Assembly: GCA_035714945.1 (NCBI GenBank)
Contig: DASTLM010000058.1
Span: 1-35,283, forward strand
Origin: Dehalococcoidia bacterium
Lineage (GTDB): Bacteria; Chloroflexota; Dehalococcoidia; Lucifugimonadales; UBA3495
Reading direction: 5' to 3'
DNA length: 35,283 nucleotides
In this document: piece after piece, positions 1,957-32,891 of the stretch
How positions within the stretch are numbered: the first letter of the stretch is position 1
Layout: every line of letters begins with the position of its first letter
The notes under the pieces: model-generated
What the model was told of the DNA's origin: nothing
Databases searched by the model: none
Seen by the model: the letters and a program-made list of their open reading frames with translations, nothing else
Position numbers and translations under genes: made by a program

Positions 1957-1992
1957 CTTTTGCTACAACTTTTGCCATAACTTTTGATGGTA
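1957..1992. repeat. tandem repeat, 12 bp x3 (cttttgctacaa/cttttgccataa/cttttgatggta)
   Basis: Read directly from the sequence. Intergenic, ending 27 nt before the ATG at 2019. Confidence 0.85.
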
Positions 1993-2018
1993 CTGAACAA
2001 TTACCAGAGGACCTGACC

Positions 2019-2417
2019 ATGATGCCTGAACCCGATATGTGCGAGGCCTGCGGGCGCGAACTGAGCAACTGGCGGCCCGACCTCTATCACCTTCCCGATG
2101 CCAGTCAACCCACCGACATGCGGGGTATCGCCGCCCAGAACTTGAAGCGGCACAACGATGCCCTGGAGAGGCTCACCCAGCAGTTGGACCAGCTGTTGGA
2201 ATTAGCCCGTCAGGGTAATCTTGACACTCAGGGGATCGTGGAGCAACTGGACCATCTCCGCCAGAACCTGACACTCCGACACGGACTGTGCATCGACCGG
2301 GCATGCGCCCTATGCCGGGTGCACGAAGAAGCGATCAAGGAGCACGTGCTGGTCTACGTGGACTGGCGAGTGCCGGGGACCATCCAGAAGCTACAGCAGG
2401 CCCGACACCGGAACTGA
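2019..2417 (+). CDS. hypothetical protein with CxxC ... CxxxxCxxC cysteines flanking a helical middle
   Basis: 132 aa. N-terminal CEAC, C-terminal CIDRACALC, and a Q/L-rich helical region between them. AGAGGA lies upstream of the ATG. I recognise no family. Confidence 0.5.
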   Translation: MMPEPDMCEACGRELSNWRPDLYHLPDASQPTDMRGIAAQNLKRHNDALERLTQQLDQLLELARQGNLDTQGIVEQLDHLRQNLTLRHGLCIDRACALCRVHEEAIKEHVLVYVDWRVPGTIQKLQQARHRN

Positions 2418-2430
2418 TGGGATATCAAAA

Positions 2431-2465
2431 GCCCCTCGTCCCGACGGTTGCGGAGGATGAGGGGC
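2431..2465. terminator. candidate bidirectional hairpin between convergent genes
   Basis: gcccctc(2431-2437) ... gaggggc(2459-2465), with an inner tcc/gga pair. It sits between the stop at 2417 (+) and the stop at 2543 (-). An A-run (aaaa) precedes it; the T-tract is weak. Confidence 0.35.
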
Positions 2466-2542
2466 CCCGCCGGCATCTGGGCCTGAGGGCCTTCCCCTGG
2501 TCTCCGCCGGTTAGAAAGGCTCCCGCGATCCAGGCCCACCCA

Positions 2543-3022
2543 TCAGCGCTGGGTATATAGGAGTTCCCGGGCGTCGTTCAAGAGTTCCTCATCACTTCGG
2601 GACAGGTCCAGAGGGTCGCCGTGGGGCTGGGGAACCGGGAAACCGGTCCGGTAGTAAAGCTCGACCCGGTTATTTTCGGGGTCAAAAAAGTACATACCGA
2701 AGGCGTTGCCGTGGCTGACAATGCGGTCAATCTTCAGGTTCTCTGCTTCAATCATCTCTTTGTACTCGCGCAGGTCCTGAATTGTGGGTACTTTGAAGGA
2801 GATCTGCTGGATTAGCTGAGCCTCGTCCGAGGCCTTCCGGCCTTTCATCAGCACGAATTCGTGGTGCTCGGATACCGGGTCGGAGCTGAGAAAGCACATG
2901 CCCCGGCCGTCCAGATCTTCGTCGGCCACGTTGAGTCCGATAACCCGGGTGTAAAAATCGCGCATTTTCATCAAATCTCGGGCGTAAATACCCACATGTC
3001 CCAGTCCGGTTGTCTGCGCCAT
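2543..3022 (-). CDS. VOC family protein (glyoxalase/extradiol dioxygenase fold)
   Basis: 159 aa. LGHVGIYARDLMKMRDFYTRVIGL ... HH.EF ... HGNAFGMYFFDPENNRVELY is the typical VOC pattern. ATG start, with GGAGG 10 nt upstream. Confidence 0.85.
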   Translation of the reverse strand: MAQTTGLGHVGIYARDLMKMRDFYTRVIGLNVADEDLDGRGMCFLSSDPVSEHHEFVLMKGRKASDEAQLIQQISFKVPTIQDLREYKEMIEAENLKIDRIVSHGNAFGMYFFDPENNRVELYYRTGFPVPQPHGDPLDLSRSDEELLNDARELLYTQR

Positions 3023-3036
3023 ACTTTCTTCGCCTC

Positions 3037-3063
3037 CTGTTTATCTGGCCTGGTTTATCTGGC
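3037..3063. repeat. tandem repeat, 13/14 bp x2 (ctgtttatctggc / ctggtttatctggc)
   Basis: Read directly. It starts 15 nt upstream of the VOC ATG (3022), immediately 5' of its Shine-Dalgarno. Confidence 0.85.
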
Positions 3064-3168
3064 CTGCAGGTGTATCGGGTAAGAGGATTCAATTATAACA
3101 CCACCGGAAACCAGGGGGTCTATTACTCCAACCGGGAGAGTCATAGCCTGGGCTGGCGAGGATTCTGG

Positions 3169-3822: not shown

Positions 3823-3831
3823 CAGTCCGGA

Positions 3832-4125: not shown

Positions 4126-4139
4126 GCCAAACGTCTCCC

Positions 4140-4943: not shown

Positions 4944-5015
4944 GAGGTATTTGGCAATTCGTTTATCGCTGCTGGGTGTCGGAGACCATTATACCATCTG
5001 GAAAATAATAATCGA

Positions 5016-5050
5016 GAAAAATACCGGGACTAGAAAAAATACCGGGACTA
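5016..5050. repeat. tandem repeat, 17/18 bp x2 (gaaaaa(a)taccgggacta)
   Basis: Read directly. The last three bases of the second copy (cta, 5048-5050) are the pdxA TAG stop codon on the minus strand. Confidence 0.9.
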
Positions 5051-6064
5051 GAAATCGGAGAGGCCGTTGCCCCTGGCCAGCCCCACTGCCAGGCGGATCG
5101 ACTCCAGCATGCTGGTGGGGTCGGCGATGCCTTTGCCGGCAATGTCGAAGGCGGTACCGTGGTCTACCGAAGTCCGCACGAAGGGCAGTCCCAGGTTGGC
5201 GGTGATGCTTTCGGCAAAACCATAGACCTTGACCGGGATGTGCCCCTGATCGTGGTACATGCAAAGCACCGTGTCGTAGCGGCCCTGGATTGCCTGGTGG
5301 AATACGATGTCGGCGGGTATCGGTCCCACCACGTTGATGCCCCGTTCTCGGGCCTCCTTCACCGCCGGTGCAATCTCCTCGGCCTCTTCGCTGCCCAGCA
5401 GTCCGCCGTCGCTGCCGTGGGGGTTCAGCGCCGCCGCTGCGATGCGCGGGTCGGTAAACCCCCATTTGACGAAGCTGTCGTGAGTCAATTGCAGGAAGTC
5501 CAGAATGCGGGCCTTCTTCACATAGTCGCAGGCCAGTCGCAGGGAGCGGTGGGTGGTCAGGTGCACCACCCGCAGGTTCCTGGCCAGCAGCATGGTTGCC
5601 ACGGTCTTGGCCCCGGACAGTTCCTGAAGCAGTTCCATGTGCCCGATGGACTGGAACCCGGCCAGGCTGGCGGCTTCCTTGTTCAGGGGCGCGGTGGCCA
5701 GCCCATCCACAATACCGGCCAGGGCCAGTTGGCCCGCCTTGGACACCCACTCCATGGCCGCCTTGCCGCAGGGGATGCTGATCTGGCCGACGGTGATATC
5801 CTCCGGGTTCAGGTTGTGGATGTCCACCACGTCCACCACGCCGGGATGCTCACCAGCGGTGGTGGGGTCGCTGGACTCGTTGATGGTCAGGGGCAGGCCG
5901 GTGAGCTGGACCGCCTGCCGCATGGCGAAGCTGTTGCCCACCACCACCGGGCGGCAGGAGGCGTAGACCCGGGGGTCGGACAGGGCTTTGACCACCACTT
6001 CCGGCCCGATGCCGCACGGGTCTCCCATGGTGATGGCGATGGTCGGTCTTTCATTTGCTAGCAT
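5048..6064 (-). CDS. pdxA: 4-hydroxythreonine-4-phosphate dehydrogenase family (PdxA)
   Basis: 338 aa. IAITMGDPCGIGPE, HGSDGG..G.EE, MYHDQGHIP and TSVDHGTAFDIAGKG are PdxA-family hallmarks. Confidence 0.9.
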   Translation of the reverse strand: MLANERPTIAITMGDPCGIGPEVVVKALSDPRVYASCRPVVVGNSFAMRQAVQLTGLPLTINESSDPTTAGEHPGVVDVVDIHNLNPEDITVGQISIPCGKAAMEWVSKAGQLALAGIVDGLATAPLNKEAASLAGFQSIGHMELLQELSGAKTVATMLLARNLRVVHLTTHRSLRLACDYVKKARILDFLQLTHDSFVKWGFTDPRIAAAALNPHGSDGGLLGSEEAEEIAPAVKEARERGINVVGPIPADIVFHQAIQGRYDTVLCMYHDQGHIPVKVYGFAESITANLGLPFVRTSVDHGTAFDIAGKGIADPTSMLESIRLAVGLARGNGLSDF

Positions 6065-6124: not shown

Positions 6125-8572
<2,448 letters not shown>

Positions 8573-8590: not shown

Positions 8591-8636
8591 TTATCAATTG
8601 TTCCCGTTATCAATTGTTCCCGTTATCAATGGTCCC
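8591..8636. repeat. tandem repeat, 16 bp x~2.9 (ttatcaattgttcccg) in the nrdJ 5' leader
   Basis: Read directly. It starts 19 nt upstream of the nrdJ start. Each unit contains the palindrome caattg. Confidence 0.9.
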
Positions 8637-8670: not shown

Positions 8671-9201
8671 TCAGTTTGAGCCCGTGACCGGGTTCATTGA
8701 CAAGCGCCGGGCCTTGCCCGCCAGCATCAGGTCCAGGATAACCTCCCGGTAGAAGTACATCACCGGCACCAGGCGAGTCTCCCCAAACCCGCCGCCGGCG
8801 ATCCTCCGGAAGGATCCGCTGGTCAGGAAGTTGAACACCAGATCACTGGTCTCCAACCACCGGCCGGAAAGACCTCTATCGCCGGAAAGACCTCTATTGA
8901 AGGAACCTATGAAGGCACCGACAATGGTGCTCAACGAGCCTGCCTCGACTCGGTTGATAACACCGGAACGCAAGCGCAACTTCTGCTCAGCCAAAACATC
9001 AATCAGCAGATCGGCCAGGTCTTTGAAGGCCCCGTCCGCCAGCGGGTGGTTGTACTCCAGTTCCAGGGTAACCCCGGTACTGTCGCAACTGCACTGCTTG
9101 ACATTGAAGTTCCGGCTCAATGATTGTACGATTGCCTCCTCGTGCCCCACGGGAGATGGTTGACATTGTGCCTGCACCAGGTATTTTATGTATCCTTCCA
9201 A
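8671..9201 (-). CDS. hypothetical protein (orf176) between nrdR and nrdJ
   Basis: 176 aa with balanced composition, whereas the overlapping plus-strand ORF is S/R/P-rich and looks like antisense noise. TTG start, with GAAGGAG 5 nt upstream. Contains an in-frame 18-bp duplication. No family recognised. Confidence 0.5.
   Translation of the reverse strand: MEGYIKYLVQAQCQPSPVGHEEAIVQSLSRNFNVKQCSCDSTGVTLELEYNHPLADGAFKDLADLLIDVLAEQKLRLRSGVINRVEAGSLSTIVGAFIGSFNRGLSGDRGLSGRWLETSDLVFNFLTSGSFRRIAGGGFGETRLVPVMYFYREVILDLMLAGKARRLSMNPVTGSN
8863..8898. repeat. tandem repeat, 18 bp x2 (gccggaaagacctctat[c/t]), in frame in orf176
   Basis: Read directly. Encodes RGLSGD-RGLSG. Confidence 0.9.
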
Positions 9202-9236
9202 CAGTACTCCTTCTACCAGTACTCCTCGTTAGTACT
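9202..9236. repeat. period-15 repeat (cagtactcct...) abutting the orf176 start
   Basis: The minus strand reads ...GAGGAGTACTGGTAGAAGGAGTACTG-TTGGAAGGATAC. The GGAGTACTG (SD plus spacer) unit occurs twice, and a degenerate third copy runs into the first codons. Confidence 0.75.
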
Positions 9237-9257
9237 ACAGTCACAGTTCTCACTGGT

Positions 9258-9345
9258 TACCCTCACCCCAGCCCTCTCCCAAAGGGAGAGGGCGCCAAGT
9301 CCCTTGTCCCTTGAAGGAGAAGGTCAGGATGAGGGTGAGACCCTT
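9258..9345. repeat. REP-like palindromic element
   Basis: Perfect 10-bp stem gccctctccc-aaa-gggagagggc (9271-9293), nested inside accctca ... tgagggt. No U-tract on either strand. Confidence 0.6.
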
Positions 9346-9406
9346 CTCTAACATGTGCGGCTGTAGTATTAGGCCATTACTCCTCGTCAGGCGTTGACAA
9401 TTCCAT

Positions 9407-9442
9407 CGGATAATGGACCGGATAATGGACCGGATAATGGAC
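9407..9442. repeat. tandem repeat, 12 bp x3 (cggataatggac)
   Basis: Three perfect copies in the 386-bp gap between orf79 and orf176. Confidence 0.95.
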
Positions 9443-9587
9443 CTTAATATTGCGGGCATTCCAGCGCCAATCGGGCGATTTTTCCCTTATGTTTTAACAC
9501 TTTTGCCCCACTGTTTCGCTGGCCTGGTGTCAGTGTTTCCGCCAACTGTCCCGTCTCGAATCAAGCCAGGGGGACCGATTCGCTAAT

Positions 9588-9827
9588 CTAGTCCTCATAA
9601 ATCTCGGGCATGGCCAGCCAGCAGGAGACCAGGCTAGCCCGCACTTCACGGTCAATCTCGTTCTGTAAATCGGCCAGAGGGTTGATTCGCAGGCCTTCCG
9701 GCAATTCATCCAGTTCGGTTTCGCCGATGGTCACCTGCATCCGGTTCAGCAAATCTTCCAGGTCATGTACCCGGTTGTTGTGGTCTAAAAGCCTGGCGAG
9801 AGCGGCGTATTGAACATTACTACTCAT
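9588..9827 (-). CDS. hypothetical small acidic protein (orf79), translationally coupled to nrdR
   Basis: MSSNVQYAALARLLDHNNRVHDLEDLL... Its ATG at 9827 overlaps the nrdR stop (ATGAGTAG, 8-nt overlap). The ORF track gives a longer 86-aa version starting at 9848. No family recognised. Confidence 0.45.
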   Translation of the reverse strand: MSSNVQYAALARLLDHNNRVHDLEDLLNRMQVTIGETELDELPEGLRINPLADLQNEIDREVRASLVSCWLAMPEIYED

Positions 9828-10497
9828 GATCAGGTAAATCTCCTTCAAATATCGGGTCCTGACTGGCTAATATTGGGTCCTGACTGGCTAATATCGGGTC
9901 CTGACTGGCTAATATCGGGTCCTGACTGGATTGCGCAGCATGTCCCTTCTGATTGGGCGTTTCTGGTCCAAGTTTGTTCTTTGGTCGGGGACCGAACTGG
10001 CGGCGCCGCCGTGTTGGCCCCGGTCCCATTTGCGGCAGGGAGAGCTGGGTATTATCCTCCCGCAAGTCCTGCACCACCCGCTCAAAGCTCTCAATGTCTT
10101 GAAAATCTCGATAGACGCTGGCATATCTGATATACGCCACTCGATCCACGTTAATCAGTCGTTCCATGACCAATTGGCCTATGATGTTCGACGGCACCTC
10201 CCCCTGGCCAAGATGTTGCAGTTCGGTTTCAATATCTTCGACCATCTTTTCGATGGTCCGGGAGGGAATCGGGCGCTTGGCGCAAGCCTTGCGAATTCCG
10301 CTGACCAATTTCTCCCGGTTGAACTCCTCCCTCCGGTTATCCCGCTTCGACACCAACAGCGCCGTGGACTGAATCCGTTCGTAGGTCGTGAACCTCACTC
10401 CGCACTGACGGCACTCGCGCCGGCGCCGGATGCCGCTTTCCACTTCTCTGGAGTCAGTCACTCTCGAGTCAGGGTGCCCGCAGAACTGACACCGCAT
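9820..10497 (-). CDS. nrdR: transcriptional repressor NrdR with ~75-aa C-terminal extension
   Basis: MRCQFCGHPDSRVTDSRE....IRRRRECRQCGVRFTTYE zinc ribbon followed by an ATP-cone (KRDNRREEFNREKL...IRYASVYRDF). ATG at 10497, preceded by AAGGTGGA. The tail carries (SQDPILA)x4. Confidence 0.9.
   Translation of the reverse strand: MRCQFCGHPDSRVTDSREVESGIRRRRECRQCGVRFTTYERIQSTALLVSKRDNRREEFNREKLVSGIRKACAKRPIPSRTIEKMVEDIETELQHLGQGEVPSNIIGQLVMERLINVDRVAYIRYASVYRDFQDIESFERVVQDLREDNTQLSLPQMGPGPTRRRRQFGPRPKNKLGPETPNQKGHAAQSSQDPILASQDPILASQDPILASQDPIFEGDLPDHE
9849..9930. repeat. tandem repeat, 21 bp x3.9 (atatcgggtcctgactggcta), in frame in the nrdR 3' end
   Basis: Read directly. Encodes SQDPILA x4 near the NrdR C-terminus. 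The first copy lies 27 nt from the nrdR stop and 22 nt from the orf79 ATG. Confidence 0.95.
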
Positions 10498-10567
10498 CAC
10501 TCCACCTTTTCTTATACTTTTCTTAAAATTATTTAAGAAATACCAAATGCTGTACTATTTGTTAATT

Positions 10568-10583
10568 GCACTACAACTTGTGG
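10568..10583 (-). promoter_or_regulatory. candidate NrdR box upstream of nrdR
   Basis: gCACTACAACTTGTGg is an imperfect palindrome (ACTACAA-c-TTGTGGT). It matches the published NrdR-box consensus acaCwAtATaTwGtgt at about 11/16 positions, including the conserved C, A, T and G. It lies 71 nt upstream of the nrdR ATG. A weaker second site may be present at 10547-10562. Confidence 0.35.
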
Positions 10584-10763
10584 TAGTTCGATTCTATGAG
10601 TCCAGCCAGCACAATGTCAATACAAAATTTCCGCGGTATTTGGCGTTTTTTTCTGGAGACCAGATGGCTGATTGGGGCGGGCATTGTGGCCAGATCCCTC
10701 ATCCAGACCGGCCTCTGGACTGGTCACCGGCAAGGGGCCGAGGATGATCGCCGAGGGTGATTG

Positions 10764-10799
10764 CAGTTGACTGCGGCTCCACAGTTGACTGCGGCTCCA
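10764..10799. repeat. tandem repeat, 18 bp x2 (cagttgactgcggctcca)
   Basis: Two perfect copies in the nrdR-ftsZ gap. Confidence 0.95.
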
Positions 10800-10978
10800 A
10801 TAGAAGAGGCCATCCCGATCAGGGACGGCCTCAAGCAGGTTCTCGGTGCCCAGGTTGTCAACTAATGAAAAAGGTGATTAAGACGGTCAGGCCTCCGAGA
10901 ATATTCCTCAAATATGGGAACCACCGGGTTTGGCAGCTACCGTCGCTATGGGAACCATTTGCGGCGGGAACCACCCGG

Positions 10979-11030
10979 CAGGAAGTTTATCCAGGAAGTT
11001 TACCCAGGAAGTTTACCCAGGAAGTTTATC
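10979..11030. repeat. tandem repeat, 13 bp x4 (caggaagttta[t/c]c)
   Basis: Four copies. The unit is not a multiple of 3, which fits a non-coding location. Confidence 0.95.
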
Positions 11031-11222
11031 CCAGAGGACGCCAGCTTTGCCTTGAGATAATTGGCTCGATATTCCCCATTCCTCTCCCATCCACTCCCAA
11101 CTTGTTTCGAGCCGGCCAGCGTCCCCGGCGAGGTTAGATCCTGGCTGGATTAAACCGGTGTTTGGGTCCCGGGTTTCCCCTCCTGCCCGGGGAGGGCAAC
11201 CTAAACACTCTCCAGGTCCGGG

Positions 11223-12388: not shown

Positions 12389-12418
12389 CAAGATTTGATG
12401 TCCCAAGATTTGATATCC
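12389..12418. repeat. tandem repeat, 15 bp x2 (caagatttgat[g/a]tcc)
   Basis: Read directly. It ends 1 nt 5' of the ftsZ Shine-Dalgarno. Confidence 0.9.
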
Positions 12419-14799: not shown

Positions 14800-14835
14800 C
14801 CTGGCATCTGGCCTGGCATCCGGCCTGGCATCCGG
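14800..14835. repeat. tandem repeat, 12 bp x3 (cctggcatc[t/c]gg), abutting the rsmH ATG
   Basis: Read directly. The first copy begins at the base next to the start codon. Confidence 0.95.
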
Positions 14836-14878
14836 CCCAACGAAGGGGCCTACCGGGCCGGCCTCGACTGTTTCACTT

Positions 14879-14923
14879 CCGGTACCATTATTGCCGGTAC
14901 CATTACTGCCGGTACCATTATTG
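14879..14923. repeat. tandem repeat, 15 bp x3 (ccggtaccatta[t/c]tg)
   Basis: Read directly, 80-124 nt upstream of the rsmH ATG. Confidence 0.95.
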
Positions 14924-15271
14924 ATGGTTTCTGCGAGAGACACCAAACCGTTGAAGGAGCACCTCACTCTCTGTTCACTAAAACCTGGCACGGCTGGCGA
15001 AAGGCACAGGTATACCCTGGGGTATAATTTAGTGGATTAAAATACCCTTCCCGGGGTGATCAGTTGCGCCCGGCCAAGTCGCGCCCGTTGCAGATCAATT
15101 CGGCTCCCCTCCCGGGGTTGGAGATTAGCCCGTCCAGACCGGCGCTGTCGCTGAATTACATCTCAGCCAGACCGGCGATACCACCCAACCCCTCCACCCG
15201 CTCACTAGTCGAAACTTATCAATCCGGTCAATACCGTGTCAACGAGTTAGACCAACCATTTTAGATGATTT

Positions 15272-15293
15272 TTAAAATTATCTTAAAATTATA
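15272..15293. repeat. tandem repeat, 11 bp x2 (ttaaaattat[c/a]), AT-rich
   Basis: Read directly, in the divergent rsmH/tig intergenic region. Confidence 0.8.
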
Positions 15294-18938: not shown

Positions 18939-18948
18939 ACTTTGATTC

Positions 18949-19779
18949 TCACCCCGTCCTCAACCCATCCTCAATCATCGCCCGGTTTATCTCCTGGTCC
19001 AGACAGATCCCCTCCGGCAACAAATACTTCCCCGGACGATCCCGGAGTTGGCCCAACCGCTGGCTTGCTTCCGGCGACCCCGGGCCGGCGGCCACCGTCC
19101 GCAGGGTCTCGAACAACAGGTAGGGTTCCCGCTGGTATTGCGCCTGACGGATCAGCCGGAATAGCTGGAAATCCTCGCCTTCTCTGGCCTTGATCTGAGA
19201 CACGTCCTGTCGGCCCAGGTCTTCCCAGTGGGCCTTGAACCTTCCGCCGACAATGGGAACGGTGCAGTAAGCGACCACCGGCCCCCGGTCCACTGCCTCG
19301 GTAGCCAGGTGGATCATGGTGCCGGTTTGAGATGCCCTGGTCTCGATCAGTTGCCAGACAACCTCTTGCCAGGTACCGATGGGGCCGTCGGGCAGCGCCG
19401 GATGCAGGTTCAGGAAGGGGAACCGTCGGCACATCACGCCGCCCAATATCAGCATATATCCAGCCAGGACACAAAGGTCAGGTTGACGGCCCGCCAACAA
19501 TCTGGATACCTGCTGGTCAAATTCCGCCCGGTGCCGGGCGAAAGTGCCGCCTCGCCGGCGCCGAAATTCGGCGGAGGAAAGGGTCACCAGAGGCAGACCA
19601 AATCGGTCAACCAGATCGAAAAACTGGTCCGAGCCTGCCGCCTCTCCCGGCGCCCGATTGCTGAAAACGAACTGGATCTGGGCATCCAACCTGCCCCTCA
19701 GTATTCGCTCCTGTACAAACTGCAACAGCCCCCGGGAGCCTTCACCCCTGCCGGTAGAGAACCAGCCGATGCTCAGCAT
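18949..19779 (-). CDS. formyltransferase family protein (PurN-like N-terminal domain)
   Basis: IGWFSTGRGEGSRGLL (GAR Tfase-like first strand/loop) and LNLHPALP (compare the PurN N.HPSLLP motif), plus a ~90-aa C-terminal extension. Start placed at ATG 19779, 1 nt after the xseB stop; the ORF-track start is 19800. Confidence 0.65.
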   Translation of the reverse strand: MLSIGWFSTGRGEGSRGLLQFVQERILRGRLDAQIQFVFSNRAPGEAAGSDQFFDLVDRFGLPLVTLSSAEFRRRRGGTFARHRAEFDQQVSRLLAGRQPDLCVLAGYMLILGGVMCRRFPFLNLHPALPDGPIGTWQEVVWQLIETRASQTGTMIHLATEAVDRGPVVAYCTVPIVGGRFKAHWEDLGRQDVSQIKAREGEDFQLFRLIRQAQYQREPYLLFETLRTVAAGPGSPEASQRLGQLRDRPGKYLLPEGICLDQEINRAMIEDGLRTG

Positions 19780-19780
19780 T

Positions 19781-20104
19781 TCAGGCGTCGGTCTCCTCAT
19801 CGTTCCATTGCAACCCTGGCCCCTGCAACCCTGGCCCCTGCAACCCTGGCCCCGGGGCAGAGCCGGGATAACTGTCCCTCAATTGGGTTATTTTCAACTC
19901 GGTCTCATTCAGCAGTTGGTTGCATCGCTGCACCAGCGCCATCCCCCGTTCGTATACGGCCGTAGCCTGGGCCAGGGGCAATCCTCCGGCTTCCAGGGCC
20001 TGGGCGGTTTCCCCCAAACGGCGGAAGGCATCTTCAAAGGTCATGGTTTCCGGGGTCATGGTTTCCGGGTCGCTACCGGACTCGCTCTTCTTTGGCCGTG
20101 GCAT
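19781..20104 (-). CDS. xseB: exodeoxyribonuclease VII small subunit
   Basis: TFEDAFRRLGETAQALEAGGLPLAQATAVYERGMALVQRCNQLLNETELKI is the XseB helical hairpin. It lies downstream of xseA. Both termini carry tandem repeats, and alternative ATGs exist at 20059 and 20044. Confidence 0.85.
   Translation of the reverse strand: MPRPKKSESGSDPETMTPETMTFEDAFRRLGETAQALEAGGLPLAQATAVYERGMALVQRCNQLLNETELKITQLRDSYPGSAPGPGLQGPGLQGPGLQWNDEETDA
19809..19853. repeat. tandem repeat, 15 bp x3 (tgcaaccctggcccc), in frame in the xseB 3' end
   Basis: Three perfect copies encoding (GPGLQ)x3. Confidence 0.95.
20039..20068. repeat. tandem repeat, 15 bp x2 (ggtcatggtttccgg), in frame in the xseB 5' end
   Basis: Two perfect copies. 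Each contains an in-frame ATG (20044, 20059) and together they encode ETMTPETMT. Confidence 0.95.
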
Positions 20105-24633: not shown

Positions 24634-26917
24634 CGGGAGCCAACTCCGGTTCCGGTTCTGCCGGGGCCATTGCCGGCGCCTCTTCCGGTTCGGCTTTCCA
24701 GGGGCAGTTGGTGCAGGCGACGCCGTCCGGCGCCTCCGCGACCATCAATCCGCCGCACTTCGGGCAGGGTTCGGCCACCGGACGCTGGTTAAGTATCAAG
24801 TCACACTCCGGGTATTTGGAGCAACCGAAGAAGGGACGCCGCCGTCCTCGGGAACGACGCTCGACGATGTCGCCGCCGCACTTGGGGCAGGCTATCCCAA
24901 TGCGGTGCAAGATGGGCTTGGTGGTGCGGCATTCCGGAAAGCCGGTGCAGGCGATGAACTTGCCGAAACGACCGGCTTTGATCACCATGGGTTTGCCGCA
25001 GGTACCGCAGATTTCGTCGGTCTCTTCGTCCATTTTGATCTTGGGCATGTTTTCCTGGGCCGATTCCAGGGCCTTTTCGAACGGCCCGTAGAACTCCCGG
25101 AGCATGGGCACCCACTCCCGCTCCCCCTGGGATACCTCGTCCAGTTCGCCCTCCATCCGGGCAGTGAAGTCCAGGTCCATCACGTTGGTGAAATATTCGG
25201 TTAACAGGTCGGTCACGGTGATACCCAGTCTGGTGGGAATCAGCCGGGCCTGGTCCTTCTCGACGTAATTCCGATCCAAAAGCGTTCCGATGGTGGGCGC
25301 ATAGGTGCTGGGACGGCCAATGCCCCTTTCCTCCATCGCCTTGATCAGGGTAGCTTCAGTAAAGCGGGGCGGTGGCTGGGTGAAGTGCTGCCGGGGTTCC
25401 AGCTTCAAGCAGTTCAAACCATCGCCACTGGCCAGTGCCGGCAGCAACTTGCGGTGGTCGTCGTCATCTCCATCGTCGCGACTTTCCAGGTAAAGGGTGC
25501 GGAATCCGGGGAATTTGAGCACCGAGCCGGTGGCCCGAAATTGGTAGACGTTGTCCGACTGTTGGCAAGCGGCTTCGATGTCCACGGTGGTGGCTTCGGA
25601 GCGGGCGTCAGCCATCTGGCTGGACAGCATCCGGGACCAGACCAGGGTGTACAGACGGTGCTGCTCGCTGCTCAACGAATCCTTCAGCGTTTCCGGGTCT
25701 CGCCGGACGGAGGTTGGTCGGATCGCCTCGTGGGCTTCCTGGGCGGATTTAGCCCTGGTCTTATAGACTCTGGACTTATCCGGCAGGTATTCCCGGCCGT
25801 ACCGTTGCCGAATATAATCCCGGGCTTCGTCAATTGCCGTCGGCGCCACCTGAACCGAGTCAGTACGCATGTAGGTAATCAAACCCACCGAACCCTCACC
25901 GGGTACGGTTATTCCCTCGTACAGCTGCTGGGCCACCATCATGGTGCGCTGAGCGGTGAAGCGCAGCTTCCGCCCGGCCTCCTGTTGCATGGTGCTGGTG
26001 GTGAAGGGCGCGGTGGGGCGCTGGCGCACGTCGCGCTTCTTGACATCGGTGACGGTGTAGGCGGCGTCCTTCAACTCGGTCTCGTAGCTGTGGGCTTCAT
26101 CCTCTCGGGCGATGCCCAGACGACCTTTCTTTCCCTTCAGCGAATGCAAGGTGGCGGTAAAGGCCTCCGGCTGGTCCGCCGGGTCGGTCTGACGGTGCAA
26201 AGTGGCATCAATAGTCCAGGACTCCACCGGAACGAAAGCCTCTATTTCCCGCTCACGGTCGGTGACCATGCGCAGGGACACCGACTGCACTCGACCGGCA
26301 GACAGGCCGCGTTGCACCCGCCGCCACAGCAGTGGGCTGAGCTGGTAGCCCACCAGCCGGTCAAGAATGCGCCGGGCCTGCTGGGCGTTGACCATCGGCA
26401 TGTCGATTTCTCGCGGGTGCTGGAAGGCTTCTGCCACCGCCTGCTTGGTTATCTCATGGAACACCACCCGCTTGGGAGGATTGGGCCGGGTGTCCCAGCC
26501 GGCGGCGGTCTGAATGTGCCAGGAAATGGCCTCTCCTTCCCGGTCCGGGTCGGTGGCCAGATAAATCTCGGTGGCCGCGTCGCCCGCCTTCTTCAGCTCG
26601 GTCAGCAGCGACTTCTTCTCCTTCATTGTGACGTAAGATGGCTGAAAGTCATTTTCAAAGTCCACACCCATCTTGCCTTTGGGCAGGTCTCTAACGTGCC
26701 CCTGGGAGGCGGTGACTACATACTTATTACCCAGAATCTGGCCGACAGTCCGGGCCTTGGCCGGTGACTCCACAATGACAAAGCTTTTGCCGGCGGTCTT
26801 GAGGGAACCGGCCTTTTTCTTCGCAACGGCCCTGGCCCTGGTGGTCCTGGGCTTGGTGGTCCTGGCCTTGGTGGTCTTGGCCCCGGCGGGAGCTTTGGTT
26901 GTTGTTTTAATTACCAT
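24623..26917 (-). CDS. topA: DNA topoisomerase I
   Basis: TOPRIM (VIVESPAKA...LATDPDREGEAI), the active-site region ITYMRTDS, and three to four C-terminal Cys4 zinc ribbons. It has a basic repeat-bearing N-terminal extension. Confidence 0.95.
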   Translation of the reverse strand: MVIKTTTKAPAGAKTTKARTTKPRTTRARAVAKKKAGSLKTAGKSFVIVESPAKARTVGQILGNKYVVTASQGHVRDLPKGKMGVDFENDFQPSYVTMKEKKSLLTELKKAGDAATEIYLATDPDREGEAISWHIQTAAGWDTRPNPPKRVVFHEITKQAVAEAFQHPREIDMPMVNAQQARRILDRLVGYQLSPLLWRRVQRGLSAGRVQSVSLRMVTDREREIEAFVPVESWTIDATLHRQTDPADQPEAFTATLHSLKGKKGRLGIAREDEAHSYETELKDAAYTVTDVKKRDVRQRPTAPFTTSTMQQEAGRKLRFTAQRTMMVAQQLYEGITVPGEGSVGLITYMRTDSVQVAPTAIDEARDYIRQRYGREYLPDKSRVYKTRAKSAQEAHEAIRPTSVRRDPETLKDSLSSEQHRLYTLVWSRMLSSQMADARSEATTVDIEAACQQSDNVYQFRATGSVLKFPGFRTLYLESRDDGDDDDHRKLLPALASGDGLNCLKLEPRQHFTQPPPRFTEATLIKAMEERGIGRPSTYAPTIGTLLDRNYVEKDQARLIPTRLGITVTDLLTEYFTNVMDLDFTARMEGELDEVSQGEREWVPMLREFYGPFEKALESAQENMPKIKMDEETDEICGTCGKPMVIKAGRFGKFIACTGFPECRTTKPILHRIGIACPKCGGDIVERRSRGRRRPFFGCSKYPECDLILNQRPVAEPCPKCGGLMVAEAPDGVACTNCPWKAEPEEAPAMAPAEPEPELAPVGD
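26837..26881. repeat. tandem repeat, 15 bp x3 (c[c/t]tggtggtc[c/t]tgg[g/c]), in frame in the topA 5' end
   Basis: Encodes AKTTK-ARTTK-PRTTR at about codons 13-27. Confidence 0.9.
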
Positions 26918-26964
26918 ATAGTCTTAGTTACCATATTAGTTACCATATATTAGTCACCATATAT
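26908..26964. repeat. four imperfect copies of TAGTTACCATAT (period 12-17 bp) spanning the dprA stop and the topA start
   Basis: Copies are taattaccatata / gtcttagttaccatat / tagttaccatatat / tagtcaccatatat. Copy 1 holds the topA ATG (26915-26917). Copy 4 encodes the last dprA codons, with the TAA stop straddling the copy 3/4 boundary (26950-26952). Confidence 0.9.
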
Positions 26965-28164
26965 TGGACTTGCCTCGCGTATCCTGACGTAGTGCATGCA
27001 CCCCACCTGCTTGACCATACCCTTGAGCTCCAGCAGGGTTAACAGGCTGCTGATCTCGGTGATGGGCATGCTGGCACGCCTTCTCAGGTCATCGATATGT
27101 ATCGGTTCATGGTCAATTTGCCCCAGCAGTTTCGACTCGCCATCGCCACTGACCGGCAGCGCCGGAACCGGCTCTTGAGCCAGCCGCATCTGAATCTGAC
27201 GGCCCACGAAGCTCAGGTTCAACTCTTCCATCACGTCGTTGGCGCTGCTTACCAGTTTAGCACCTTCCTGAATTAGCCGGTTGGTCAAGTGGCTGGCCGG
27301 GGAGAAAATGCTGCCCGGAACGCAGAAAACTTCCCGGTCCTGATCCAGAGCATGGTACACCGTCCAGCGGGCGCCGCTGCCCTCGGCGGCCTCCACCACC
27401 AGGGTTCCCAGGCTGATGCCGCTGATCAGGCGATTGCGCCGGGGAAAGCTGCGGGAGTCGGGCCGGATGCCCAGGGGCACCTCGCTGACCACCGCCCCCT
27501 GACCAGATATGCGCTGGGACAGGGTGGCATGCTCCTTGGGATAAATGATATCCAGTCCATTGGCCACCACCGCCAGGGTGCGCTCACCCGAATCTAACGC
27601 GGCCCGGTGGGCAATGCCATCGATGCCCAGGGCCAGCCCGCTGACGATGGCGATCCCGTTTCTGGCCAGTTCAGAGGTCAGGGTGGCGGCGACTTCCCGG
27701 CCGTAGGTGGTGGGACTGCGGGTGCCGACCACCGCCACCGAACGTTCGTCCGAAGGCAGCAACTCCCCTTTATAGTAGAGCACTGGCGGAGGGTCATGGA
27801 TTTCCTTGAGGCGGGCCGGATATGCCGGGTGGTGCCAGTTGACGGCTTTGACTCCAGCCCTGGCCAGGTTGGCCATCTCATCGTCGGGAGAGACCTTGCG
27901 GCGGGCCGCAACGATCTCGTTGGCTACCCGGGCCTCCATGCCGGCGGCTTTAAGCTCGCTGTATGAAGCCTTCCAGACGTTTTCGGCCGCGCCAAAATAG
28001 GCCTCCAAACGGCGAAAACGGATGGTGCCCAGGAGGCGCACCCGACCGAGGGCGACCCAGTATTTTAACTGTTCCACGTTGCCTGTTCCATGTTGGGATG
28101 ATAGCACAGCGGTAAAGCAGCGAACAACGTAGGGCTTGACCGAATTAGGCGAGGATGCAGCCAA
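26950..28164 (-). CDS. dprA: DNA processing protein DprA (Smf)
   Basis: Rossmann-like DprA core (VAVVGTR.PT.YG...A..L...LA..G..IVSGLA.GID..AH..AL, VVA.GLD..YP..H) and a C-terminal winged-helix-like domain. It lies upstream of topA, as with Bacillus smf-topA. The true start may be downstream of 28164. Confidence 0.88.
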   Translation of the reverse strand: MAASSPNSVKPYVVRCFTAVLSSQHGTGNVEQLKYWVALGRVRLLGTIRFRRLEAYFGAAENVWKASYSELKAAGMEARVANEIVAARRKVSPDDEMANLARAGVKAVNWHHPAYPARLKEIHDPPPVLYYKGELLPSDERSVAVVGTRSPTTYGREVAATLTSELARNGIAIVSGLALGIDGIAHRAALDSGERTLAVVANGLDIIYPKEHATLSQRISGQGAVVSEVPLGIRPDSRSFPRRNRLISGISLGTLVVEAAEGSGARWTVYHALDQDREVFCVPGSIFSPASHLTNRLIQEGAKLVSSANDVMEELNLSFVGRQIQMRLAQEPVPALPVSGDGESKLLGQIDHEPIHIDDLRRRASMPITEISSLLTLLELKGMVKQVGCMHYVRIREASPIYGD

Positions 28165-28395
28165 TTGGAGTATCCATAATCTCCCCCGAATCTCCCCCTG
28201 GTGTATTCAGATTGGGACGCTTCCCCTGGTTTTGGCTCCGAAATGTCATAATACTGGCACTGTAGCTTACTCCCAGGCTAATTGGTGGTCTGTCACACTG
28301 GGCCCGGGGCCCTGGTGAAGCTACTCTTCAACCAGAGGGCAGGAACCAAAGGGTCAACCGAGCATGAAATAACTGTGGACCAGGCCGATTTCCGA

Positions 28396-30434: not shown

Positions 30435-31297
30435 GCAAGAAGAACCCTGAGTACGATTTCAAGTGGTGTCCTGGTTGCGGCGACTTCGGTGTTCGGCGAG
30501 CTTTGGAGTTTGCCATGATCAACCGGTTGGAGGAGACCGGACTGCCCATGGAAAGCAACGTGGTAGTCGCCGGGATTGGCTGTTCCGGCAATCTGGTGCA
30601 CCTGCTGGAAGGTCCTCAGCCCTATGGAATCCATGGCATTCACGGCCGCACCCTGCCAATTGCCATGGGCATCAAGATGGCCCGCCCGGAGTTGAATGTA
30701 GTGATCGTCGCGGGCGATGGGGACTTCCTCAGCATCGGCGCCGAACATATTGGCCCCCAGGCCGCTCGCAACCTCAACGTCTGCGCCGTGATTATGGACA
30801 ATGGCGTGTATGGCCTGACCAAAGGACAGAGTTCGCCCACCACCAAAGAGGGGACCATCACCAGTTCGACCCCCTTTGGCAAGATGGAAACCGAGGTCGA
30901 TCCTTTGGAGCTATACTTGACCCTGGGCGCGTCGTTCATCGCCTCGGGCTTTTCGGGCAACCCCAGGCAACTGGCCCAGTTAATCACCCGGGGGATGAAC
31001 CACAAGGGGTTCGCCCTGGTGCATGTCCAGTCCCCCTGCGTCACCTACAACGACACTTACGAGTTGTTCAAAGGCAAGCCCCAGGAAGGCATAGCGCCGC
31101 TGATCTGGGATGTTCCTGAGGGACACGATTCCTCCGACAAGGCGGCGGCACATAAACTGATTCAGAAGCGCGGACTGCCCGTCGGGGTAATTTACCAGGA
31201 CGAAAGCAGGCTCTCCCTAGACGACCGGGTGCAGCAGGTCTGGCGCAAAGACCGCCAGCATACGGTACAGGAATTGATGGACGCCTACGCAATCTGA
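30431..31297 (+). CDS. korB: 2-oxoacid:ferredoxin oxidoreductase, beta (TPP-binding) subunit
   Basis: WCPGCGDFGV, GIGCSG, HGR.LP.A.G, GDGD...IG..H, N.VYGLTKGQ.SPT. ATGA overlap with the korA stop. Confidence 0.9.
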   Translation: MSKKNPEYDFKWCPGCGDFGVRRALEFAMINRLEETGLPMESNVVVAGIGCSGNLVHLLEGPQPYGIHGIHGRTLPIAMGIKMARPELNVVIVAGDGDFLSIGAEHIGPQAARNLNVCAVIMDNGVYGLTKGQSSPTTKEGTITSSTPFGKMETEVDPLELYLTLGASFIASGFSGNPRQLAQLITRGMNHKGFALVHVQSPCVTYNDTYELFKGKPQEGIAPLIWDVPEGHDSSDKAAAHKLIQKRGLPVGVIYQDESRLSLDDRVQQVWRKDRQHTVQELMDAYAI

Positions 31298-31310
31298 ATT
31301 CAGTAACCAC

Positions 31311-31352
31311 AGACGCAAAACGCCCCGCCGGAAGGCGGGGCGTTTTGCGTCT
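31311..31352. terminator. bidirectional intrinsic terminator between korB (+) and ccmE (-)
   Basis: Perfect 19-bp inverted repeat agacgcaaaacgccccgcc-ggaa-ggcggggcgttttgcgtct. It has a GC-rich core flanked by AAAA on one side and TTTT on the other, so either strand reads as hairpin plus U-tract. Confidence 0.8.
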
Positions 31353-31405
31353 ACTGCACCACCATCGTTCAAGCAGTTTATACTGGACCGAACCAGAGAA
31401 GAGGG

Positions 31406-31433
31406 CTGGGGCCACTGAGCTGGGGCCACTGAA
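31406..31433. repeat. tandem repeat, 14 bp x2 (ctggggccactga[g/a])
   Basis: Read directly, between the terminator and the ccmE stop. Confidence 0.85.
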
Positions 31434-31449
31434 TCGAAGGGCCCGCGCT

Positions 31450-31983
31450 CTAGCTACGGCTTGACGGCACTGGCGGTTGCTGCAAGCGCTGCTCTTCCTC
31501 CAGGGCCCGGTACTTGGACGGACATTTGACCAGTATGCTGTCGGCCTCGAACACTTTTTCGGGACCGTAGCGGCCCTCCAGGATGATCTCCGAGTGGGGG
31601 TTGAAGAACAGGTCGGGCATCACACCCACATAGGAAGCGTTCAGGGCAACTTCGGTGCCTGCTGCTTCATCGATCAGCTGGAATTGGGATAGGGTCGAGC
31701 CCTTTTGGCGCTGGAAGCTTTCCTCCATCAGCTTACCCGACACTCGCACCATCCGCCCGTCCTGATACTCCGGACCTGCCAGGAACTCGCCCACGGTCAA
31801 AAAATACCGGGTGTTCCCGGGGAATGCGGCGTAGATCATGTAGCCGATCGCCAGGACCGCCACTGCTCCCAGGACTGCGAAACGGACCCATTGGCTCCTG
31901 CCTGAGCCTTCTCCAGCGGCCACTGCCAGGGTGGGGTCTTGCTCTATGTCTGCCAAGGAAAGCCTCGTAAAAGATATTGGCAA
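31450..31983 (-). CDS. ccmE: cytochrome c-type biogenesis heme chaperone CcmE (CxxxY variant)
   Basis: One N-terminal TM helix, then the OB-fold pattern YFLTVGEF......GRMVRVSG.L.......F.L.D.......V.Y.G..PDLF.....I.LEG. The C-terminal ...LVKCPSKY occupies the place of the canonical HxxxY heme-binding motif. Apparent TTG start is uncertain. Confidence 0.82.
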   Translation of the reverse strand: MPISFTRLSLADIEQDPTLAVAAGEGSGRSQWVRFAVLGAVAVLAIGYMIYAAFPGNTRYFLTVGEFLAGPEYQDGRMVRVSGKLMEESFQRQKGSTLSQFQLIDEAAGTEVALNASYVGVMPDLFFNPHSEIILEGRYGPEKVFEADSILVKCPSKYRALEEEQRLQQPPVPSSRS

Positions 31984-32192
31984 AAGTTGATACGGTCAAC
32001 GGGTCTGGTCGGTTTGCGGACCAGGATTTCCCAGTACACGAGTTGCCAGTACATGATACCATCCCGGACTGGACGGATCTATATCTGGCGCCTGGAGGGG
32101 TGCACCCACCGTTTAACCGGAAAAGTTGAGAACCATTAGGCTGGACGAGACCCGGGCAATGATGCTAGGCTAGGTTCCATAATCTGGGAGCG

Positions 32193-32891
32193 GTGATGGG
32201 CATGATCCAGTTAACGTTAGTAGTTGCGCTGAACGCAATTGGGCTGGTACTGGCAACCTGGGGGGTCACCATGCTGCTGGGCACTCACAACCCATTTCTC
32301 CCCATGGTTGAAGCCATTATCACCGTCATTGGCCTGACCGTGGCCACCGCGGGCACCGGCTGGATGGCCGCCCTCCTGATAATTGGCAGCACCCGAAGGC
32401 TACGAAGTGCCGGAACCAACAATATCGCCGCCAGACCCACTCCCGCCACCAGGCCAGTCCCGCATCGGGACCGGCTGCTGAAGGCGATGGAAGAGCTGCA
32501 CAATTCCGCTCTCGACCTGATCGAACGCCGGCGGGAGTTGCACCAGATGAACCTTCGTCAGTGGCACAATGAGCATCGAGAAGAGACCGCTGGCGAGATT
32601 GAAGCCACCAAACGGTACCGCCTGGCCAGGACCAACCTGGAACCTTACCGTCAGGTTTTGCCCGCCCATTACCGATCTCCGGTGGACCGATTCGCCGATG
32701 CCATCGAAGCCAGCATACCCCGAGAAGCCTACTCGACTCCCAATGATAAAGGGGTGTACGAGTCGCTGAATCGCAACTGGCACCAGGCAATGCAAGGAAT
32801 TAACGATATTTCCACCGGAATGCCCACCACCGGAATGCCCACCACCGGACTGCCAACCGCTGAAGCCGCCGGCCGGGCCTCCGTCAACTAG
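32193..32891 (+). CDS. hypothetical membrane protein (2 predicted N-terminal TM helices, helical soluble tail)
   Basis: 232 aa with plausible composition. It lies opposite-strand between ccmE and ccmD, and its 3' end overlaps the ccmD 3' end by 8 nt. No family recognised. Confidence 0.5.
   Translation: MMGMIQLTLVVALNAIGLVLATWGVTMLLGTHNPFLPMVEAIITVIGLTVATAGTGWMAALLIIGSTRRLRSAGTNNIAARPTPATRPVPHRDRLLKAMEELHNSALDLIERRRELHQMNLRQWHNEHREETAGEIEATKRYRLARTNLEPYRQVLPAHYRSPVDRFADAIEASIPREAYSTPNDKGVYESLNRNWHQAMQGINDISTGMPTTGMPTTGLPTAEAAGRASVN
32811..32855. repeat. tandem repeat, 15 bp x3 ([t/a]ccaccgga[a/c]tgcc[c/a]), in frame in the 3' end of the 232-aa ORF
   Basis: Encodes TGMPT-TGMPT-TGLPT. Confidence 0.9.

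Follow-up and report, generated by a model that had tools for sequence, protein, structure and literature searches.

Why does a run of core housekeeping genes carry so many short tandem repeats, and do the repeats serve the genes beside which they lie? The question is raised by a 35,283-nt stretch of the genome of an uncultured Dehalococcoidia bacterium (assembly GCA_035714945.1, contig DASTLM010000058.1, positions 1 to 35,283), called here the window. A sequence-only reading had noticed in it many head-to-tail arrays of 11-21-bp units at the edges of genes such as nrdJ, nrdR, ftsZ and topA, and had proposed that copy-number changes, if they occur in the population, would tune essential genes. 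Our answer, to which we give a probability of about 0.78, is that the arrays are minisatellite-like loci of the variable-number tandem repeat (VNTR) type, whose units come and go through replication slippage and whose placement has been shaped by purifying selection.

The window is a core housekeeping region according to scans with NCBIfam and Pfam, with which the gene calls on contigs of the same species agree. Its genes run in the order DUF1385, orf132, VOC, kinase, yggT, proC, pdxA, nrdJ, orf176, orf79, nrdR, followed by ftsZ, ftsA, rsmH, tig, clpP, clpX, purN-like, xseB, xseA and efp, and then by pepQ, aroQ, xerC, topA, dprA, korA, korB, ccmE, orf232, ccmC, ccmB and ccmA, and the GC content is 56-64%. 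When a one-genome-per-species collection was scanned with ClpX, the organism fell in Dehalococcoidia (Chloroflexota), and the nearest species representative had at most 77% identity. A metagenome scan with NrdJ gave no contig of the same species, its top match having 86% protein identity, and exact-protein look-ups with ProC, PdxA and CcmC returned no record. Exact-protein look-ups with EF-P, ClpP, FtsZ and KorB led to same-species contigs from five samples (ENA ERZ27256989 and ERZ27256991; JGI 3300033407, 3300033417 and 3300031965). These contigs (among them L164, L165, L166, L169, L171 and L173) are 98.2-99.85% identical to the window and jointly span positions 1166-33581. For comparison at greater distance we used syntenic contigs of three relatives in the genus (L081, L082 and L083), which were aligned to the window at 8.2-11.2 kb and have 72-91% DNA identity over the aligned blocks.

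Density, size and placement of the arrays

Tandem Repeats Finder (TRF) returned 44 rows for the window, corresponding to 40 loci with a score of at least 30, 30 with at least 40 and 22 with at least 50, and found in their places all the loci that had been named from the sequence. The claim that their density is far above normal is borne out. In 100 dinucleotide-preserving shuffles there were 0.17 +/- 0.43 loci with a score of at least 50, against the 22 observed. Shuffles are a weak control, and we added a baseline of real sequence, namely 1.64 Mb of loci with a GC content of at least 0.45 around clpX and nrdJ homologues, mostly from Chloroflexota/Dehalococcoidia. This baseline has 0.089 loci/kb, from which 3.1 loci are expected in the window, an excess of about 7-fold (Poisson P = 4e-12). 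None of the 76 baseline loci of at least 10 kb attains the density of the window (0.62 loci/kb), the baseline maximum being 0.44.

The excess is confined in size. Perfect duplications with units of 11-21 bp occur at 0.40/kb in the window and at 0.012/kb in 1.55 Mb of control loci, a 32-fold difference, and those with units of 7-10 bp are not enriched (0.113 versus 0.114/kb in the same controls). Together with the 7-fold excess over the baseline, this upholds the suggestion that the lineage has a raised tendency to local duplication or slippage. Exact duplications with at least two full copies fell into two classes, one with periods of 4-7 bp that forms a chance background and one of 14 arrays with periods of 12-21 bp; none in the window had a period of 8, 10, 11 or 22-60 bp. 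The upper size limit of the class is solid; the lower one is marginal, since small excesses would be lost in the chance background.

Isolated two-copy arrays have just 0-2 nt of extra identity in their flanks, and the first duplication therefore occurred without microhomology. The rare duplications in control loci likewise lack microhomology, so this feature is not peculiar to the lineage. No common junction motif was seen when the sequences flanking 23 arrays were inspected. As had been concluded from the sequence, the units are unrelated to one another, and neither a dispersed family nor a mobile element is involved: the units have no k-mer longer than 7 in common, and a search for dispersed copies with all unit rotations on both strands and 1-2 mismatches gave matches at chance level, judged by a rough, unshuffled estimate. 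Raised repeat densities were also found in other Dehalococcoidia loci (0.28/kb in L001, L025 and L005; 0.44/kb in L099) and in the short contigs L081 and L083 (0.5-0.8/kb), and most other Dehalococcoidia loci have densities near zero.

For the placement of arrays we used the 30 arrays with a score of at least 40 and a gene map corrected by homology and by the gene calls on same-species contigs. Placement is clearly not random, as the sequence-only reading had stated. Seventeen of the 30 arrays are intergenic, where intergenic DNA makes up 12.4% of the window (P = 9e-9), and array density is 4.0/kb between genes and 0.43/kb within them. The unit length is divisible by 3 in 11 of the 13 genic arrays (P = 2e-4 against an expectation of one third) and in 8 of the 17 intergenic ones, and eight genic arrays lie within the terminal 15% of the protein (P = 0.018). 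Retention at gene edges thus holds in all three respects, although the stronger claim that genic arrays are always terminal and always in triplets does not. An array at 60% of the orf176 protein and weak ones in the middle of orf132, ccmB and orf232 are not terminal, and two arrays depart from triplets, one of 11-bp units that runs across the purN-like gene's stop codon and a degenerate one of 17-bp units in the unannotated orf232. The repeated peptides form low-complexity tails, with DKVR x4 in NrdJ, QDPILAS x4 in NrdR, PETMT x2 and GPGLQ x3 in XseB, TTKAR-like x3 in TopA and TGMPT x3 in orf232.

Arrays had also been said to abut translation signals. They were indeed found beside the starts of rsmH, ftsZ, orf176, VOC and nrdJ, but the enrichment is marginal (P about 0.03). 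Ten of 16 intergenic arrays lie within 30 nt of a gene boundary, with 5.9 expected under random placement (P = 0.034), and seven lie within 30 nt of a start codon, with 3.2 expected (P = 0.029); we do not rely on these values, which hinge on start-codon calls and on a null dominated by a few long spacers. At 3039-3066, 8591-8630, 9193-9226 and 12389-12418 the arrays end at or include the 5' edge of a ribosome-binding site (RBS), a pattern noticed post hoc, with a rough P of about 0.015-0.03, that may reflect merely the shortness of the spacers.

The frame bias recurs elsewhere. We pooled seven other Chloroflexota loci, six from Dehalococcoidia (five metagenome-assembled genomes, MAGs) and one from a Ktedonobacterales MAG, and found unit lengths divisible by 3 in 37 of 43 genic arrays, 21 of the 43 being terminal. 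In these loci the tails of Tig, ClpP and TopA are repeatedly sites of arrays.

Copy number within the species and in relatives

The suspicion that copy number varies in the population proved correct. In about 80 kb of pairwise alignment between the window and the same-species contigs, with 285 mismatches, whole-unit copy changes occurred at six arrays, and the only other indels were two, of 1 nt and about 27 nt. The 12-bp array at the N-terminus of nrdJ has 4 copies in the window and 2 in L169, which gives NrdJ proteins of 815 and 807 aa. In the same contig the 21-bp array in the nrdR tail has 2.9 copies instead of 3.9 (NrdR of 218 instead of 225 aa), and the intergenic 13-bp array at 10979 has 3.2 instead of 4.2, as it does in L171. 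The 15-bp array in the xseB tail has 3 copies in the window and L164 and 2 in L165 and L166 (XseB of 107 versus 102 aa), and the 14-bp array at the dprA/topA junction has 3.1 copies in the window and 2.1 in L164 and L165 and is unchanged in L173. The largest difference was at the intergenic 14-bp array at 31405, with 2 copies in the window and L173 versus 5 in L165.

Instability depends on copy number. Five of 11 arrays with at least 3 copies were polymorphic, versus one of 18 with fewer than 3 copies (Fisher P = 0.018). Across about 60 locus-by-contig comparisons we counted 9 copy changes versus 285 substitutions, which by rough estimate would put copy change per array at a few tens of times the rate at which a single site is substituted. 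No fresh duplication from one to two copies distinguishes the same-species contigs, and the first duplication must therefore be much rarer than later copy change. A second, UBA1141-like lineage of Dehalococcoidia behaves alike: L005 and L099, which share 99.4% identity over 10.7 kb, differ by a single indel of more than 2 nt, namely a 12-bp unit (DSKD) of the ClpP C-terminal tail. This tail consists in both L005 (9849-9916) and L099 (791-860) of two adjacent 12-bp arrays, with DSKD and AKAD/SKAD units. At the end of contig L171 (window about 8860-8915) the sequence gives way to a divergent orf176 allele that has one 18-bp unit, like that of the genus relatives, which suggests a strain mixture or a chimeric contig end in sample ERZ27256989.

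Comparison with more distant homologues showed that segments encoded by repeats are lineage-specific insertions. The closest NrdR homologues (83-89% identical, 204 aa) contain one QDAIL unit versus four QDPILAS units in the window, and the difference in length is exactly 21 residues, that is, three 21-bp units. Aligned NrdR homologues have in common a C-terminal tail of about 55 residues past the conserved core, and inspection of the longer ones (P0045, P0104, P0117 and others) revealed no independent repeat expansion. TopA has a basic N-terminal tail rich in K, T and A in 9 of 9 Dehalococcoidia relatives examined. Since these TopA and NrdR tails are widespread in relatives, the tails are old and the arrays inside them are recent.

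In L081, L082 and L083 the 16-bp array, the intergenic 12-bp array and both 18-bp arrays are single-copy or without an alignable counterpart; on the whole, a single copy is the rule in relatives with about 80-90% DNA identity. Two other sites carry arrays in relatives too. At the N-terminus of nrdJ the window has four copies of GATAAAGTCAGG, L083 has four copies of GATACGGCAGGC at the same site and L081 has a single copy. NrdJ homologues at greater distance lack an N-terminal repeat. Downstream of ftsZ, where the window has four copies of the 13-bp unit GGTAAACTTCCTG, L081 has about five copies of GGTACTCTTCGCT in register, and the array is absent from L082. The units of the nrdJ and ftsZ arrays are uniform within a lineage and diverged between lineages, which indicates concerted evolution, the outcome to be expected of recurrent contraction and re-expansion.

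Individual arrays and neighbouring elements

Tandem-repeat arrays in the window with a TRF score of at least 40; positions are those of the window, and strand is given where it was recorded
Unit and copies	Position	Strand	Location	Remarks
12 bp x 2.5 (88% match)	1957..1986		intergenic DUF1385/orf132	TRF; same copy number in L169
12 bp x 2.0 (91% match), weak	2177..2200		mid-gene in orf132	TRF
14 bp x 2.0 perfect	3039..3066		intergenic, ends at 5' edge of VOC RBS (AGGAGG)	unchanged in L169
18 bp x 2.1 perfect	5017..5054		covers pdxA stop codon (5048-5050)	TRF
24 bp x 2.0 (80% match), weak	8324..8371		nrdJ near residue 75, in frame	TRF
12 bp x 4.0 perfect	8486..8533	-	NrdJ N-terminus	DKVR x4; polymorphic
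16 bp x 2.5 perfect	8591..8630		intergenic, ends at nrdJ RBS	1 copy in L081, L083
18 bp x 1.9-2.2	8863..8905	-	orf176, at 60% of protein	
15 bp x 2.3 (89% match)	9193..9226		over orf176 RBS and TTG start	TRF
12 bp x 3.1 perfect	9407..9443		intergenic	1 copy in L081, L083; unchanged in same-species contigs
21 bp x 3.9	9848..9929	-	NrdR C-terminal tail	QDPILAS x4; polymorphic
13 bp x 1.9 (91% match)	10737..10761		intergenic	TRF
18 bp x 2.0 perfect	10764..10799		intergenic, directly after conserved terminator-like hairpin	species-specific
13 bp x 4.2	10979..11034		intergenic, downstream of ftsZ	polymorphic
15 bp x 2.0 (93% match)	12389..12418		1 nt from ftsZ RBS	TRF
12 bp x 3.2	14800..14837		abuts homology-supported rsmH ATG (14799)	unchanged in 3 same-species contigs
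15 bp x 3.0 (93% match)	14879..14923		80 nt upstream of rsmH ATG	TRF
11 bp x 1.9	15272..15292		intergenic, upstream of tig	TRF
12 bp x 3.8 (75% match)	16868..16912	+	Tig C-terminal tail	old, degenerate
11 bp x 2.5 (87% match)	18948..18974		across purN-like stop codon	TRF
15 bp x 3.0 perfect	19809..19853	-	XseB C-terminal tail	GPGLQ x3; polymorphic
15 bp x 2.1 perfect	20039..20069	-	XseB N-terminus	PETMT x2; ATG duplicated
15 bp x 3.5 (89% match)	26831..26882	-	TopA basic N-terminal tail	TTKAR-like
14 bp x 3.1	26924..26965		spans dprA stop codon and topA 5' flank	polymorphic
14 bp x 1.9 (92% match)	28069..28095		over dprA start codon (GTG 28077)	TRF
11 bp x 1.9	28178..28198		intergenic, upstream of dprA	TRF
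14 bp x 2.0 perfect	31405..31432		between convergent korB and ccmE ends	polymorphic
17 bp x 2.2 (80% match, indels), weak	32426..32463		unannotated orf232	TRF
15 bp x 3.1	32812..32858	+	orf232 C-terminal tail	TGMPT x3; unchanged in L173
18 bp x 2.0 (88% match), weak	34117..34152		mid-gene in ccmB, in frame	TRF

Some arrays can be described further from their relatives or their surroundings. The 18-bp repeat in orf176 belongs to a stretch of 30 nt (10 aa) that is inserted in comparison with L081 and L083, and where the window has the array over the orf176 start, L083 carries a 12-bp unit of unrelated sequence in about 8 copies. The Tig tails of L001, L025, L005 and L014 likewise bear repeats. 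In L014 a separate 15 bp x 2.6 array lies towards the 3' end of a small ORF that is presumed from its position to be xseB. For dprA, the GTG start at 28077 gives a protein of 375 aa, which matches the same-species gene calls. The rsmH frame is open for 64 codons upstream of the ATG at 14799 (14800-14991), a putative extension with two in-frame arrays that would encode PDAR x3 and NNGTG x3, and the gene callers start rsmH on same-species contigs at GTG 14991 (374 aa). At the dprA/topA junction the 14-bp unit ATATGGTAACTAA resembles the start sequence of topA, ATATGGTAATCAA (26917-26965). Every 14-bp unit there contains an ATG and, after it in the same frame, a TAA, which makes a very short reading frame upstream of topA, and the topA ATG is without a recognisable RBS.

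Several other elements were noticed beside the arrays. A block of about 115 nt on the minus strand (10800-10915), between the ftsZ stop codon and the nrdR promoter, is far better conserved than its flanks in L081, L082 and L083, and has repeat arrays on either side. It contains a predicted long-range stem (AGGAATATTCTCGG / CCGAGAACCT), then a GC-rich hairpin and then TTCTATT, which is terminator-like. The block has no match to an Rfam family and no covariation among the 4 sequences alone, and it may be a small RNA or a leader. Searches of the whole window with Rfam at gathering thresholds, of 10480-11230 with Rfam at E<=1 and for tRNAs yielded nothing relevant. Upstream of nrdR, at about 10570-10625, a TTGACA promoter-like hexamer is followed by the palindrome ACCACAAGTTGTAGTG, and both are kept in 3 of 3 genus relatives. 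The palindrome is probably a NrdR box, by prediction, for self-regulation by nrdR of an operon of nrdR, orf79, orf176 and nrdJ. In this operon, orf176 and orf79 (8671-9827) form a conserved pair between nrdR and nrdJ without a Pfam or NCBIfam match, orf79 overlapping the nrdR stop codon by 8 nt; orf176 is 81-84% identical in L081 and L083 and 43% identical in L161. The two may be uncharacterised partners of the ribonucleotide reductase operon.

Compared with L081 and L083, the window has about 190 bp of inserted sequence at 9215-9400, which the same-species contigs have as well. It includes a perfect hairpin at 9272-9292 (CCCTCTCCC-AAA-GGGAGAGGG) that is single-copy in the window and flanked by further inverted G/C-rich segments. 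Candidate identities for the inserted sequence are a small mobile or REP-like element and a terminator. At the far end of the window AT skew rises to +0.21 at 32001-34000, well over the rest, in a stretch that coincides with the membrane-protein genes ccmC and ccmB (minus strand) and the unannotated orf232.

Origin of the arrays and comparison with known systems

RecA-independent slippage at tandem repeats is established in Escherichia coli and Bacillus subtilis (compare the discussion in PMC2884548). In the explanation that we favour, an array would begin with a rare local duplication of an 11-21-bp segment, without flanking microhomology, and would then gain and lose whole units, most likely by such slippage, with an instability that climbs with copy number and with the similarity between copies. 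The lineage would make or keep arrays at roughly 7-30 times the usual level. Purifying selection would delete insertions that shift the frame or hit folded domains of essential proteins, and the survivors would be units of any length in intergenic spacers and in-frame units in low-complexity or disordered terminal tails. As the genome is compact and the remaining spacers are short, many surviving arrays would lie near an RBS, a start codon or a stop codon. The data themselves show the excess, the placement, the frame bias, the insertions particular to the lineage, the whole-unit differences between strains and the rise of instability with copy number. We infer slippage, neutrality and a lineage-specific cause of the raised rate, and we think that most arrays are neutral or nearly so and have no regulatory role.

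Several points weigh against this explanation. Slippage accounts for copy change and not for the first duplication, which has 0-2 nt of flanking homology, and it leaves the sharp 11-21-bp class and the cause of the raised rate unaccounted for. Arrays are nearer to start codons than random placement would have them (P about 0.03), and four intergenic arrays, at VOC, nrdJ, ftsZ and orf176, end at or include the 5' edge of an RBS, neither of which a purely neutral filter obviously predicts. The nrdJ and ftsZ arrays are kept across roughly 15-20% DNA divergence, and persistence of arrays in diverged relatives could mean that selection keeps them. That the tendency is genome-wide we infer from the even spread of arrays over 35 kb and from the relatives.

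Some of these points are also those on which an adaptive role would rest. If the arrays were tuning dials, copy changes would adjust the expression or the properties of essential genes (ribonucleotide reductase, FtsZ, TopA and ExoVII), and polymorphism at six loci within the species, the altered lengths of NrdJ, NrdR and XseB, the four arrays at an RBS edge and the one that copies the topA start region would all fit, as would the closeness to start codons, marginally above the random null (P = 0.03), and the sites kept by the nrdJ and ftsZ arrays in diverged relatives. Variation in the copy number of promoter tandem repeats in Mycobacterium tuberculosis is a precedent (PMC12817950). We nevertheless consider this role very unlikely, and the earlier proposal of tuning found no direct support. 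Every array in confidently identified genes is in frame, and none is therefore an on/off switch. No intergenic array of the window lies between an RBS and its start codon, promoter elements not having been scanned. The largest copy difference (31405, 2 versus 5) is between convergent gene ends, where there is no translation start signal, and another polymorphic array (10979) lies past the ftsZ stop codon. Two-copy arrays were stable in the same-species comparisons with one exception, and the 9 copy changes versus 285 substitutions point to a rate orders of magnitude below that of known contingency loci. The sequences of the units are under no constraint and for the most part do not occur in close relatives, and constraints of protein structure alone predict terminal enrichment (PMC3315296). 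Nor would tuning be new: a U-shaped repeat density (PMC3315296) and variation of promoter repeats (PMC12817950) have already been published, and given the M. tuberculosis precedent, tuning of housekeeping-type genes, even if true, would not be unprecedented.

A stronger claim about origin, compatible with slippage and purifying selection, is that a mutational process specific to the lineage yields tandem duplications of 11-21 bp without microhomology, for example through altered processing of Okazaki fragments or flaps, through fill-in and ligation of staggered breaks, or through loss of an exonuclease or helicase that suppresses misalignment. The 32-fold excess limited to 11-21 bp, where units of 7-10 bp are not in excess and those of 22-60 bp do not occur, argues for it, as do the 0-2 nt of extra identity flanking isolated two-copy arrays and the patchy distribution of raised density over Dehalococcoidia (the window, L081/L083, L005/L099, L001 and L025). 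But the lower size limit is marginal, a length-uniform process predicting about 9 arrays of 7-10 bp where 4 were seen; duplications in control loci are equally without microhomology; xseA and xseB are both present in the window; and repeat junctions have no common motif. We therefore find such a process rather doubtful. It is unlikely, and slightly more so, that some Dehalococcoidia lineages are in a distinctive regime in which duplications of 11-21 bp without microhomology arise at about 30 times the usual level, dominate the indels within species and reshape the tails of NrdJ, NrdR, XseB, TopA, ClpP and Tig and the 5' flanks of RBSs. If a specific replication or repair trait were confirmed, or arrays beside RBSs were found to modulate translation, this would be a new bacterial mutational signature affecting core genes. 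No new regulatory mechanism is revealed on present evidence.

We give almost no credence to the idea that the arrays are assembly or polishing artefacts or footprints of mobile elements, be they target-site duplications, small dispersed repeats or miniature inverted-repeat transposable elements (MITEs). L001 and L025, the closest species representatives with raised density, have contigs whose names and lengths suggest long-read assembly, and several arrays are exact two-copy repeats as left by target-site duplication. However, arrays recur in independent assemblies from five samples, two ENA sets of which have short-read-style k141_ names, and assembly error would not produce a reading-frame bias within genes. 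Units are unrelated, have no dispersed copies and are 11-21 bp long, and many arrays have 3-5 copies; with eight unit lengths from 11 to 21 bp and no element between the copies, target-site duplication, which leaves exactly two copies of a length set by the transposase, is ruled out. A CRISPR array, in which direct repeats of about 24-48 bp alternate with unique spacers of like length, is ruled out as well, the copies of the 11-21-bp units abutting without a spacer in arrays of 2-5 copies. So are iterons or direct repeats bound by a regulator, which would keep their sequence and number in relatives: L081, L082 and L083 have a single copy, no array or another sequence at these places.

The systems closest to the arrays, which we explain by slippage and purifying selection, are the bacterial VNTR or minisatellite loci used in multiple-locus VNTR analysis (MLVA). 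These consist of head-to-tail units of about 10 bp or more, with units specific to the locus, and are mostly intergenic or in frame. Strains differ at them by whole units, and instability increases with copy number and with the similarity of copies. Typing schemes of this kind include MIRU-VNTR in M. tuberculosis and others in Yersinia, Bacillus anthracis and Xanthomonas. The arrays in the window likewise have tandem units, vary between strains by whole units and have units specific to each locus, but they are unusual in their density (0.62 loci/kb), short units (11-21 bp) and low copy numbers (2-5), and in that their host is an uncultured, free-living member of Dehalococcoidia and not a clonal pathogen. 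Minisatellites serve in strain typing (PMC2884548). For this uncultured Dehalococcoidia population, of which there are assemblies from at least five metagenomes, the arrays could be used like MLVA loci to tell strains apart. Whole-unit repeat changes are the chief class of indels between strains in this lineage, and they alter the lengths of essential proteins without disrupting them. The case also illustrates that a raised duplication rate and purifying selection can together mimic purposeful placement at gene boundaries, and the excess at 11-21 bp, variable between lineages, is a lead for differences in slippage or repair within Chloroflexota.

Contingency loci of Neisseria, Haemophilus, Helicobacter and Campylobacter have units of 1-7 bp in many copies that switch very fast, and act through frame shifts or promoter spacing, mostly on surface, virulence and restriction-modification genes. 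The feature in common is slipped-strand copy change at tandem repeats near gene starts. The small units, many copies, frame shifts and surface or virulence genes do not apply to the window, where promoters are unmapped, and the 9 copy changes versus 285 substitutions argue indirectly for a much lower rate of switching: the units in confidently identified genes are all divisible by 3, and the genes concerned are nrdJ, nrdR, ftsZ, rsmH, tig, xseB, topA, dprA and pdxA. In prokaryotic proteins in general, repeat density is U-shaped, which has been ascribed largely, and in many species alone, to constraints of protein structure (Lin and Kussell 2012, PMC3315296). The depletion midway along proteins and the enrichment at both termini are the same in the window. 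That study dealt with simple sequence repeats and phase variation by frameshift, whereas the arrays here have units of 12-24 bp that are in frame in confidently identified genes and add or remove peptide units of 4-7 residues.

In M. tuberculosis, tandem repeats upstream of the metabolic or housekeeping-type genes dop, lpdA, glpD2 and efpA vary in copy number between strains, and variants occur at 10^-2 to 10^-3 per chromosome in isogenic populations, for which the authors propose altered promoter strength (PMC12817950). Our comparison, in contrast, is between strains, with promoters unmapped, and several of the variable arrays are without an expected expression signal. Dispersed repeat families are also short, often tandem and abundant between genes. 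In the SDR, STRR and HIP1 repeats of cyanobacteria and in REP/BIME, one unit recurs at many loci. The TAACTGA repeats of Beggiatoaceae are another family with one unit at many loci (PMC4679880). Units in the window, however, differ locus by locus, and a dispersed family (REP/BIME, MITE or SDR/STRR) is ruled out, as no unit recurs at many sites within the window. A literature search on tandem repeats in Dehalococcoidia genomes found nothing relevant. Overall, the arrays belong to a known kind of locus and are unusual in how densely they occur, in an uncultured lineage in which we found no earlier description of them.

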